Assembly: GCA_947628985.1 (NCBI GenBank)
Contig: CANRCA010000001.1
Coordinates: forward strand, 1 to 46,664
Direction of reading: 5' to 3'
DNA length: 46,664 nucleotides
DNA from: an uncultured Bacilli bacterium
GTDB lineage: Bacteria; Bacillota_I; Bacilli_A; RF39; UBA660
Made by a program: the position numbers and the translations under genes
Shown: positions 27,802 through 30,351 of the stretch, one piece after another
Position numbering within the stretch: the first letter of the stretch is position 1
How the letters are laid out: each line of letters opens with the position of its first letter
Notes under the pieces: generated by a model
What the model was told of the DNA's origin: nothing
What the model saw: the letters and a program-made list of their open reading frames with translations, nothing else
The model's database searches: none

Positions 27802-29016
27802 ATGAAAAGTAAAAAAGGATTTACATTGGTAGAATTATTAGCAGTTATTGCAATCTTAGCAATATTAGTAATAATAGCACTACCAAATATATTAAATTTA
27901 TATAGGAATGCAAGAGAGAATGTATTTGTAACAGAAGTACAAGAAATAATAAAATCTTCACAACAAGGATATCTAAATGGTGCATTATCAAATAAAGATT
28001 GTATGTGTTTTAGTAGTGCATCAAATCCATTAGAAATAGATGCAAGAAATAATTTAGAATATTATGTAGAATTTAATAATAATGGAGAAGTAATAAATTT
28101 AACAGTAAAAGACAAAAATTACCAATTTGTATCAGAAAATGAAGTAATAAATGTATCAGATATAGGAAGTAGTAGAAGTGGAAAAGAAAAAAGAACACAA
28201 CCAGTACAAGAAAGTACAGAAGTACCATCATGTGATAGTAGTAGTGGAAGTGAAATAGTAGTCGAACCAAAAAATTCTTCTATGTTAAAAGAAAGTTCTA
28301 TTGCAGAAAGAGGAGATAGTTTCTTTTCAACAATTGATGCTAATAAAATAGAAAGTATGGTATTTACAAATACAAATAAAGTACCAGATGGAGTACTTGG
28401 AAGCGAAGATGTATCAGAAGATGAAAGTGGAAACATAATGATGTGGTGGACAGATTCAAATGGAAATGGTTTATATGAAGCAACAGTTGGACAAGAAGGT
28501 GGAGTTAGAAATAATACATCTAGTGGATGTACATTTCATGATATGTGGAATTTAAAATCATTAGATTTAACATATTTTTATACAGCAGATTCAACAAATA
28601 TGGCAGCTATGTTTAATTATTGCTCAAGTTTAACTGAATTAGATTTAAGTTCATTTGATACATCCCAAGTAACAAATATGTATGGTATGTTTGATGGTTG
28701 TAGTTCATTACAAAAATTAGATTTAAGTAATTTTGATACCTCAAAAGTAGAAAATATGTCATTTATGTTTTCTCATTGTTCAAATTTACAAACAATAAAA
28801 TTTGGAGAAAAATTTAATACATCAAGTGTAACATATATGTCAGGTATGTTTCAATATTGTTCAAGTTTAACCGATTTAGATTTAAGTAATTTTACAATAA
28901 ATGAAGATGCTGATTTAAGTTGTATGTTTGAGGAAACAAATGAAGCATTAGATATAAAAAGTACAGGACTTCCAAATTATGAGAGTTTACAAGAAGGACT
29001 AGTATGTTCATATTAA
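27802..29016 (+). CDS. Prepilin-type N-terminal cleavage/methylation domain protein fused to BspA/DUF285-type leucine-rich repeats (paralog 1)
   Basis: MKSKKG|FTLVELLAVIAILAILVIIALPN is a class III signal. The C-terminal half carries ~24-aa repeats (DLS.FDTS.V.NM..MF..CS.L). Confidence 0.85.
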   Translation: MKSKKGFTLVELLAVIAILAILVIIALPNILNLYRNARENVFVTEVQEIIKSSQQGYLNGALSNKDCMCFSSASNPLEIDARNNLEYYVEFNNNGEVINLTVKDKNYQFVSENEVINVSDIGSSRSGKEKRTQPVQESTEVPSCDSSSGSEIVVEPKNSSMLKESSIAERGDSFFSTIDANKIESMVFTNTNKVPDGVLGSEDVSEDESGNIMMWWTDSNGNGLYEATVGQEGGVRNNTSSGCTFHDMWNLKSLDLTYFYTADSTNMAAMFNYCSSLTELDLSSFDTSQVTNMYGMFDGCSSLQKLDLSNFDTSKVENMSFMFSHCSNLQTIKFGEKFNTSSVTYMSGMFQYCSSLTDLDLSNFTINEDADLSCMFEETNEALDIKSTGLPNYESLQEGLVCSY

Positions 29017-29018
29017 TT

Positions 29019-29045
29019 AGATACTTAATTATGAGTATCTTTTTA
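29019..29045 (+). terminator. Terminator of pilin-LRR paralog 1
   Basis: Stem agatact/agtatct followed by tttt. Identical hairpins follow paralogs 2 and 3. Confidence 0.7.
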
Positions 29046-29122
29046 TATAATATAAAAATTAAAAAGTAATCATAAAATTATAAATGTGTATTAACATAAA
29101 GTGTCTAATTTATTGTTTTAAC

Positions 29123-29149
29123 TTGACTTTCCATATATATATATATAAT
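29123..29149 (+). promoter_or_regulatory. Promoter of pilin-LRR paralog 2 with (AT)7 in the spacer
   Basis: TTGACT 29123-28, (AT)7 29133-46, TATAAT 29144-49, 15-nt spacing. Confidence 0.5.
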
Positions 29150-29187
29150 TTTCTTAGTAGGGTAAAAATAGAAAGAAGGTATTATAT

Positions 29188-30351
29188 ATGAAAAGTAAAA
29201 AAGGATTTACGTTGGTAGAATTACTTGCAGTAATTGCAATATTAGCAATCTTAGTAATAATAGCAATACCAAATGTATTAAATTTATATAGAAATGCAAG
29301 AGAAAATGCATTTGTAACAGAAGTACAAGAAATAATAAAATCTTCACAACAAGGATATTTAAATGGTGCATTATCAAATAAAGATTGTATGTGTTTTAGT
29401 AGTGCATCAAATCCATTAGATATAGATGCAAGAAATAATTTAGAATATTATGTAGAATTTAATAATAATGGAGAAGTAATAAATTTAACAGTAAAAGATA
29501 AAAACTATGAATTTGTATCAGAAAATGAAGTAATAAATGTATCAGATATAGGAAATAGTAGAAGTGGAAAAGAAAAAACAACACAACCAGTACAAGAAAG
29601 TACAGAAGTACCATCATGTGATGGAAGTAGTAGTGGAAGTGGAGATAATTCATTTGATATTAAGTATACATCTATGTTGAGAGTATTCCCAGATTATGCA
29701 GAATGTGAATATGCAGATAGTACACCTGCTTATTTGTGTGCTTCTTTTGGAACTTCTAGTCAAATAGAATCATTAAAAATAACAAATACAAATAAAGTAC
29801 CAGAAGGAGTACTAGGAAGTGAAGATGTATCAGATGATGGAGAAGGAAACATAATGATGTGGTGGACAGATACAGATGGAGATGAATTATATGAAGTAAC
29901 AATAGGAGGAAAAGGAGGAGTTAGAGCCAATACGGATAGTCATAGTTTATTTAGTGATATGTATAGTTTAGAATCAATAGATTTAGCATATTTAGATACC
30001 TCACAAGTAACAAATATGGAAAAAATGTTTTATGGTTCTAATATGAAAACATTAGATTTAAGTAATTTTAATACATCTCAAGTAACAAGTATGTTTTATA
30101 TGTTTAATGATTGTACAAATTTACAAACAATAATGTTTGGAAAAAATTTTAATACATTAAATGTAACAGATATGAATAGGATGTTTGAAGACTGTTCAAG
30201 TTTAACAACTTTAGATTTAAGTCACTTTACAATAAGAGATGATGCAGATTTAGAATGTATGTTTGAAGGAACAAATGATGCATTAGATATAAAAGGTACA
30301 GGACTTCCAAATTATGAGAGTTTACAAGAAAGACTAGTATGTTCATATTAA
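29188..30351 (+). CDS. Prepilin-signal / BspA-DUF285 LRR fusion protein (paralog 2)
   Basis: The first ~145 aa and the last ~20 aa are near-identical to paralog 1. The central and LRR region has diverged. The two genes form a tandem duplication with a 1386-nt period. Confidence 0.85.
   Translation: MKSKKGFTLVELLAVIAILAILVIIAIPNVLNLYRNARENAFVTEVQEIIKSSQQGYLNGALSNKDCMCFSSASNPLDIDARNNLEYYVEFNNNGEVINLTVKDKNYEFVSENEVINVSDIGNSRSGKEKTTQPVQESTEVPSCDGSSSGSGDNSFDIKYTSMLRVFPDYAECEYADSTPAYLCASFGTSSQIESLKITNTNKVPEGVLGSEDVSDDGEGNIMMWWTDTDGDELYEVTIGGKGGVRANTDSHSLFSDMYSLESIDLAYLDTSQVTNMEKMFYGSNMKTLDLSNFNTSQVTSMFYMFNDCTNLQTIMFGKNFNTLNVTDMNRMFEDCSSLTTLDLSHFTIRDDADLECMFEGTNDALDIKGTGLPNYESLQERLVCSY

Follow-up and report, generated by a model that had tools for sequence, protein, structure and literature searches.

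Three paralogous genes of an uncultured Bacilli bacterium (contig CANRCA010000001.1, assembly GCA_947628985.1) each join a type IV prepilin signal to a region of leucine-rich repeats (LRRs), which raises the question of what kind of surface protein they encode and how its expression is controlled. The window analyzed here is the whole stretch of 46,664 nucleotides (nt) and corresponds to one complete NCBI contig; it has a G+C content of 22% and carries nearly all of its genes on the + strand. On balance, and with moderate confidence, we favor the interpretation that the three monocistronic genes encode phase-variable modular type IV pilins presenting an LRR head of the PARCEL type. The genes are as follows.

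27802..29016, + strand: paralog 1 (p1), 404 amino acids (aa), an intact open reading frame (ORF).
29188..30351, + strand: paralog 2 (p2), 387 aa; leader and carrier module as in p1 (95% aa identity over residues 1-135), a different linker, and four PARCEL units.
35125..36252, + strand: paralog 3 (p3), 375 aa; leader and N-terminal half of the first helix (alpha1N) identical, pilin globular part diverged (dN > dS against p1 and p2), and four PARCEL units.

Rereading of the sequence placed the three ORFs, their common N terminus, MKSKKGFTLVELLAVIAILAILVIIA(L/I)PN, and their common C terminus, ..TGLPNY..L.E.L.CSY, as an initial annotation of this DNA had described them. In p1, p2, and p3 alike, the prepilin-type leader MKSKKG is followed directly by FTLVE, and Gly at -1, Phe at +1, and Glu at +5 make up a class III signal. 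Indeed, Pfam N_methyl (PF07963) matched residues 1-27 of each paralog with 32 bits (cut-off, 21.2), and NCBIfam TIGR02532 (prepilin N-terminal domain) matched all three with 29 bits (cut-off, 16.3), which bears out the annotated prepilin-type signal. The C-terminal half of each paralog was matched by Pfam DUF285 (PF03382; 70-89 bits; cut-off, 25), and NCBIfam TIGR02167 (PARCEL repeat) was found in 3-4 stretches per protein with 80-124 bits (cut-off, 30). N_methyl and DUF285 are thus present within one polypeptide, which is the architecture of a modular pilin sensu Raynaud et al. 2021. A six-frame motif scan detected no prepilin motifs beyond the three paralogs in the 46.6-kb window. Identity as ComG competence pilins was rejected, the matches to ComGC, ComGD, and ComGE being N-terminal only and far under the cut-offs; a mycoplasma-like code 4 was also rejected because the paralog ORFs are uninterrupted under table 11.

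Each protein can be divided into a carrier, a linker, and a head, given here for p1.

27802..28176, + strand: residues 1-125; a six-residue basic leader ending in Gly, then the pilin carrier (alpha1 helix, 9-61; four beta strands, 69-116), from Pfam, NCBIfam, AlphaFold2 (AF2), and a PDB profile.
28177..28326, + strand: residues 126-175; a Ser/Glu/Thr/Pro-rich linker of low model confidence, the segment most divergent among the paralogs.
28327..29016, + strand: residues 176-404; N-cap IMMWWTD..YE.T.G..GGVR, five 26-residue DUF285/PARCEL LRR units, C-cap ..TGLPNYESLQEGLVCSY, and the stop codon.

The AF2 model of full p1 was built with 23 homologues and had a mean predicted local distance difference test (pLDDT) score of 84. 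For the carrier it predicted a 53-residue helix (9-61) and four strands (69-116) with pLDDT of about 80-84, and a separate AF2 model of residues 1-126 gave the same topology as the full-length model. This predicted topology is the "lollipop" of type IV pilins. Besides, a PDB sequence profile matched the carrier to alpha1 of geopilin, T. thermophilus PilA, S. sanguinis PilE1, and MshA, with E values down to 1e-7. The conserved N-terminal module noted in the initial annotation is therefore pilin-like by modeled topology and alpha1 profile matches. G-1, F1, T2, L3, E5, and P22 were invariant across the 23 homologues, and the conserved Gly-1, Phe1, Glu5, and Pro22 are residues needed in pilin processing and assembly. 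Over the first 40 codons, pN was 0.02-0.03 versus a pS of 0.27-0.33 in every paralog pair; therefore, the leader and alpha1N are held by purifying selection and are not merely recent copies. The pilin globular part of p3 had dN above dS when compared with p1 and p2, which suggests diversifying selection, although the comparison is based on about 120 codons in a very AT-biased genome.

The linker had a pLDDT of 57-71 per 10-residue block (p1 residues 121-180), with stretches below 50, and its roughly 50 residues are predicted to be disordered. The head that follows was modeled in p1 residues 180-404 as a solenoid with block pLDDT mostly of 86-97, and it scored 88.8 bits for DUF285 and 123.7 bits for TIGR02167. 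The weak best Foldseek matches of the full model were LRR proteins (Toll, InlJ, and TLR9), none of them significant. We counted five PARCEL units in p1, four in p2, and four in p3, in addition to the N-cap and C-cap, the extra unit of p1 being 26 aa long, so that the previous count of 5-6 LRRs per protein is replaced by 4-5 repeats plus caps. Pfam LRR_5 (PF13306), the BspA type, scored 24.7, 24.3, and 15.2 bits in the three paralogs, under its cut-off of 27.7, and "DUF285/PARCEL-type LRR" is thus the accurate label; a relative with the same carrier (locus L043) reached 88 bits for LRR_5, above the cut-off. Of the earlier description of the repeats as DUF285/BspA type, the first half holds (PF03382 and TIGR02167 above cut-off) and the BspA type proper does not.

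Regarding expression, the elements flanking the three genes are listed below.

27737..27763, + strand: p1 promoter, with the -35 box TTGACT at 27737-27742, a 15-nt spacer, and the -10 box TATAAT at 27758-27763.
27747-27761: p1 TA tract, ATATATATATATATA, with seven TA units at 27748-27761.
27787..27793, + strand: Shine-Dalgarno sequence AAGAAGG of p1, 8 nt 5' of the ATG and inside the conserved 5' untranslated region (UTR), GGGTAAAAATAGAAAGAAGG.
29019..29045, + strand: p1 intrinsic terminator, a 9-bp stem and U run (dG, -9.9 kcal/mol; z = -4.0).
29123..29149, + strand: p2 promoter, TTGACT, a 15-nt spacer with a TA tract at 29133-29147, and TATAAT.
30354..30380, + strand: p2 intrinsic terminator, the same conserved hairpin and U run.
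35060..35086, + strand: p3 promoter, TTGACT, a 15-nt spacer with a TA tract at 35070-35084, and TATAAT.
36255..36281, + strand: p3 intrinsic terminator (dG, -8.3 kcal/mol; z = -3.6).

An alignment showed that about 70 nt upstream of the ATG, comprising TTGACT, the TA tract, TATAAT, and the 5' UTR, is almost identical in p1, p2, and p3, and the hairpin with its U run is kept directly 3' of the stop codon in each. This agrees with the annotation that promoter, 5' UTR, and terminator are common to all three copies, p3 included. Since each paralog has a promoter and a terminator to itself, it makes up a complete monocistronic unit. Generic scans were uninformative in DNA of 22% GC: a sigma-70 scan gave 81 promoter-like sites versus 91 expected, and a terminator scan found 0, with fewer than 3 GC pairs in the stems; the cassette and the hairpin were therefore established by alignment and folding instead. 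Neither known RNA elements (Rfam) nor significant folding was detected in the 5' UTRs. The promoter and 5' UTR at 27743-27801 are nearly 100% identical among the paralogs, while the synonymous sites of the first 40 codons (27802-27921 in p1) differ by about 30%, and the upstream cassette may be under a constraint of its own or may have been homogenized separately.

The most informative feature of these units is probably the (TA)n tract, which had escaped the initial annotation. The window contains five (TA)n tracts with n of at least 5, all in promoter regions of surface-protein genes and, wherever both boxes are readable, between -35 and -10. In the three paralogs, (TA)7 lies between TTGACT and TATAAT in a 15-nt spacer; in relatives the spacer is 15 or 17 nt. 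A repeat placed between the two boxes, where the number of units sets the length of the spacer, has the position of a contingency locus. The two remaining tracts of the window are as follows.

21266-21278: TA tract upstream of the surface-protein gene 21320-22324.
22403-22417: TA tract upstream of its paralog, 22460-23536.

Both of these genes have the layout CTCTTG..(TA)n..AAAAATAGAA.G.AG, with n = 6-7. In 0.76 Mb of low-GC loci, 13 tracts had n of at least 6, and every one of them preceded either a carrier-pilin gene, at a distance of 40-45 nt, or one of the two genes 21320-22324 and 22460-23536. Furthermore, a sister species provided a comparison between closely related samples. Its gene P0008 was found in four samples on contigs 99.9% identical over 10-15 kb, and between its loci L004 and L002 (99.9% identity) the sole insertion or deletion in 12.5 kb was one TA unit, giving a spacer of 15 versus 17 nt. 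When JGI metagenome contigs were screened twice for the cassette, a variable gap being allowed, the result was zero hits and one chance hit that had neither a TA tract nor a pilin. The hif fimbrial promoter of Haemophilus influenzae is a TA-repeat promoter. Vmm of M. mycoides is described as switching ON and OFF via dinucleotide insertions and deletions in a repetitive promoter region (PMC2628566), and in M. capricolum (TA)n variable-number tandem repeat tracts 5' of PARCEL lipoprotein genes have been described as contingency loci (Roske et al. 2010, PMC2996958). The placement of the tracts, the polymorphism in the sister species, and the Vmm and PARCEL precedents together suggest that each paralog is phase variable and that the assembled allele is in the weaker state. 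In the promoter of an orthologous gene, P0037 (L001, about 80-164), a degenerated tract, TATATATTTGTATACA, replaces the pure (TA)n and may be a "locked" version of the switch.

The two additional genes with TA tracts are orphans that have a signal-like N terminus and a C-terminal TPKTGN followed by a hydrophobic stretch and KK, without a Pfam match. The TPKTGN tail looks like a sorting signal of the LPXTG type, an assignment that comes without confirmation from Pfam. Two more TPKTGN-tailed surface-protein paralogs, at 957-1925 and 3574-4596, are without TA tracts. Between them lie an AbiEii toxin gene (2695-3555; PF08843, 104 bits) and, at 2064-2702, what is probably its partner gene. The copy at 3574 has a signal sequence, which is apparently lacking in the one at 957.

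As for the origin of the repertoire, remeasurement of the start-to-start spacing of p1 and p2 returned the 1386 nt of the tandem duplication reported previously. Nucleotide identity between the two was 95-99% in codons 31-150, about 61% in alignment columns 151-210 (linker), 71-86% in the LRR region, and 94% in the last 30 codons. Besides, the closest pair changes along the alignment, being p2-p3 in columns 241-270 and p1-p3 in columns 181-210 and 361-390. These incongruent segments indicate exchange between paralogs, and the sharp shifts of identity along the gene uphold the view that the copies are mosaics produced by recombination. Directly 3' of p3, at 36335-38954, are two large ORFs (645 aa and 238 aa) without a Pfam match at E <= 0.01.

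We further characterized the carrier in relatives, using a hidden Markov model (HMM) of the module of about 125 residues. Among GTDB species genomes, the loci most similar to the window came from rabbit-gut metagenome-assembled genomes (MAGs) labeled "uncultured Bacilli," with 74% identity over the carrier module, and the next closest came from MAGs of other gut Bacilli, "Tenericutes," "Mollicutes," and Erysipelotrichaceae. Looked up as exact sequences in a contig index, p1 had no record, whereas p2 was present on two short ENA contigs. The full-length carrier was joined to varied C termini, namely DUF285 (L011 and L015), LRR_5 (L043), Glug (L002), and DUF6273 (L010); the carrier protein of L007 had a weak FGE-sulfatase-like C-terminal region, and several other relatives had domains without a known family. 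The best database matches of the module were stand-alone pilins of 115-240 aa. In several MAGs of gut Bacilli, between one and four such stand-alone pilin genes stand in tandem at a conserved position, murG-divIB-(ylbD/ylbE)-pilin(s)-nfo, and no pilus assembly genes were seen near them. The stand-alone pilin loci are as follows.

L009, 9995-10477.
L088, 10001-11175.
L089, 10001-10528.
L012, about 8700-10350.

Since the full-length module is found with differing C termini and has stand-alone homologues, it behaves like a conserved carrier with interchangeable heads. Distant relatives contain tight tandem arrays of three N_methyl genes with differing C termini and gaps of about 50-70 nt (L090, 1501-4953; L094, 1-3057); these arrays are without TA-tract promoters and present the same building blocks in another organization.

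The fusion itself is less novel than the initial annotation implied. N_methyl plus DUF285 is an architecture common to many metagenomic proteins, and named NCBI homologues are entered as [quoted passage not shown] IPR026906 is the InterPro entry of the BspA-type LRR_5. Modular pilins have been defined as proteins in which a functional module, probably tip exposed, is grafted onto a pilin module, and more than 1,200 of them in 264 architectures have been reported (Raynaud et al. 2021, PMC8179133). Dataset S1 of that study contains IPR012902-IPR005046 (nine proteins and multi-copy variants) and IPR012902-IPR026906 (18 proteins), IPR012902 being the pilin module and IPR005046 being DUF285 (PMC2996958). 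Thus, the architecture has already been catalogued. To our knowledge, no DUF285-headed pilin has been characterized. What is added here is detail (a shared carrier with swapped heads, orphan monocistronic genes, TA promoters common to a second class of surface proteins, and mosaicism) and is not a new kind of system.

The genes can be compared with several characterized systems. S. sanguinis PilB (pilin and vWA) and PilC (pilin and lectin) likewise combine a class III signal and a small pilin module with a C-terminal domain that is not pilus specific, and they share with the window genes a monoderm host and a predicted role in binding (PMC8179133; PMC9934059). PilB and PilC, however, lie inside a pil locus and have their module joined by a short loop, whereas the window genes stand alone as monocistronic orphans, are present as several mosaic copies, and have a disordered linker of about 50 residues and (TA)n promoters. 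The PARCEL/DUF285 lipoproteins of the Mycoplasma mycoides cluster (LppQ and MCAP_0268; PMC2996958) contain the same 26-residue repeat family (DUF285/TIGR02167) and, like the window paralogs, form variable, multi-copy, tandem, mosaic surface repertoires with (TA)n tracts 5' of the genes. They differ in having lipoprotein or plain transmembrane signals, wall-less cells, and UGA as a Trp codon, whereas the window paralogs have a type IV pilin anchor and code 11; pilin-type signals go unmentioned in the PARCEL paper (PMC2996958). The window organism appears to be walled, judging from MBOAT-like (23632-25011) and DHHW (25020-26084) genes and the LPXTG-like surface proteins. Compared with the ON/OFF switching described for Vmm, the switch proposed here is a predicted one, based on the position of the tract between -35 and -10, its exclusivity to surface-gene promoters, and one case of differing tract length between samples of a sister species. 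BspA of Tannerella forsythia and the Listeria internalins also display a leucine-rich solenoid on the bacterial surface, and InlJ is among the weak structural matches, but LRR_5 is under cut-off in the window proteins, the repeat is the 26-residue DUF285/PARCEL unit, and anchor and context are different. Large minor pilins such as CofB of enterotoxigenic Escherichia coli, GspK, and ComZ (PMC8179133) also join a pilin module to bulky extra domains and are proposed to be at the filament tip; unlike the window genes, they are single copy, lie in machinery operons, and are without phase variation by promoter repeats.

The initial annotation had proposed adhesin-tipped pseudopilins, or pilin-anchored LRR adhesins, that diversify by recombination. 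The signal, the pilin-like module, the DUF285 LRRs, and the mosaicism stand, and adhesin presentation on a pilin is the most plausible reading, in line with the published modular-pilin concept (PMC8179133). The mechanism would be as follows. A prepilin peptidase encoded elsewhere in the genome would cut MKSKKG after Gly, so that the mature protein would start with F-T-L-V-E; the hydrophobic alpha1N would anchor it in the membrane and, by analogy, form the surface through which it joins a type IV or Com-like filament. With the small pilin domain as the carrier, the flexible linker of about 50 residues and the DUF285/PARCEL solenoid would make up the exposed effector, most likely a head that binds a ligand as an adhesin does and that is located at the filament tip or close to it. 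Each copy would probably be turned on and off independently of the others as slipped-strand events add or remove TA units in its promoter spacer; the (TA)7 of the assembly, with its 15-nt spacer, would be suboptimal, and one more TA unit would give the optimal 17 nt. The repertoire would diversify by duplication, by gene conversion between paralogs, as repeat units are gained or lost, and as exposed parts change rapidly. In this mechanism, the cleavage, the entry into a filament, the binding of a ligand, and the ON/OFF switching are steps that we infer. More tentatively, the cassette (-35, (TA)n, -10, and conserved A-rich 5' UTR) might be portable and belong to a genome-wide contingency regulon of this lineage of small-genome gut Bacilli that independently switches many surface genes of two anchoring types, including modular pilins that have one conserved carrier and interchangeable heads (PARCEL LRR, BspA LRR, Glug, DUF6273, and others), but we consider this extension less likely than not.

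Several observations weigh against phase-variable modular pilins. Neither the full model nor the model of the pilin module had a Foldseek match in PDB at E <= 0.001; the fold assignment therefore rests on topology and alpha1 sequence similarity and is likely but not proven. The p2 tract is an identical (TA)7 in three samples of the window species, tract-length variation was seen in the sister species only, and assemblies report only a consensus. We know of no ligand for any DUF285/PARCEL domain. As the initial annotation had noted, pilus genes are missing from the window: phmmer searches with machinery proteins from other loci found no homologues of PilB, PilC, PilD, PilT, or PilM there, and neither a prepilin peptidase nor an assembly ATPase or a platform protein was encoded within 10 kb of any copy in close relatives. 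It is here that the filament model is weakest, as the search of this genome for prepilin peptidase and pilus genes covered the window only.

The main alternative is a pilin-type membrane anchor without a filament. The class III signal and alpha1N would then only insert and hold the protein, cleaved or not, and the linker would thread the LRR head through the peptidoglycan, giving a cell-bound adhesin or variable antigen comparable to the mycoplasma PARCEL lipoproteins with another anchor. Two points speak for it: the paralogs, like their relatives, are scattered monocistronic orphans that never lie beside pilus genes, and a disordered linker of about 50 residues, much longer than the short loop of S. 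sanguinis PilB, the one modular pilin characterized, would also suit display through a wall. Besides, the same promoter cassette drives surface proteins with an LPXTG-like C-terminal anchor, which suggests a general surface-display regulon that is not pilus specific, and PARCEL domains are typically joined to membrane-anchoring signals of several kinds (PMC2996958). On the other hand, the invariant Gly-1, Phe1, Glu5, and Pro22 and the strong purifying selection on alpha1N suggest more than a hydrophobic anchor, and a predicted folded pilin globular domain, homologous to stand-alone pilins, has been retained. Complete type IV pilus clusters also occur in related low-GC gut Bacilli. In an Acholeplasmatales MAG of low GC (L083), one such cluster contains minor pilins, a PilD-like gene, PilC, PilB, a PilM-like gene, and a major pilin that matches carrier HMM positions 2-66, the N-terminal half; therefore, type IV pilus systems exist in the wider group. 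The major pilin of a type IV pilus cluster in Acutalibacteraceae (L050) matches positions 2-102. We place the probability of anchoring without a filament clearly below even.

Two other explanations are much less probable. Were the leader only an export or processing signal, the LRR proteins would be effectors that a pseudopilus, type II secretion-like or Com-like, sheds or secretes. The only argument for this is that proteins with a class III signal are prepilin peptidase substrates and that no machinery was found in the window; the 21-residue hydrophobic alpha1N, however, stays on the mature protein after the Gly-1 cut and would hold it in the membrane or in a filament, and neither a second cleavage site in the proteins nor secretion-system genes in the window were seen, which makes release improbable. 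Least probable of all is that the copies are decaying or silent, nonfunctional remnants or archival cassettes that act only as sequence donors for recombination, since the suboptimal 15-nt spacer of the assembled promoters and the segments exchanged among the paralogs, which would suit such a role, are set against three intact ORFs each with a Shine-Dalgarno sequence, promoter, and terminator, an N terminus under purifying selection, and the identical encoding of p2 in two further samples (short ENA contigs, 99.96% identical to the window).

As it stands, the locus is a well-documented instance of a catalogued architecture and introduces no new principle. It does join three literatures so far unconnected, those on modular type IV pilins, on PARCEL/DUF285 variable surface proteins, and on TA-repeat promoter switches of Mollicutes, and the three paralogs with their relatives constitute a concrete test set for the function of the DUF285 domain. 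If the contingency-regulon reading were true, one and the same pilus apparatus could display tip adhesins in combinations that change stochastically. If phase-variable modular pilins are indeed what these genes encode, different binding heads would be carried on one pilin handle, each copy flipped by promoter slippage, and a genome-reduced, uncultured gut bacterium would thereby vary its adhesion targets or the surface visible to its host.

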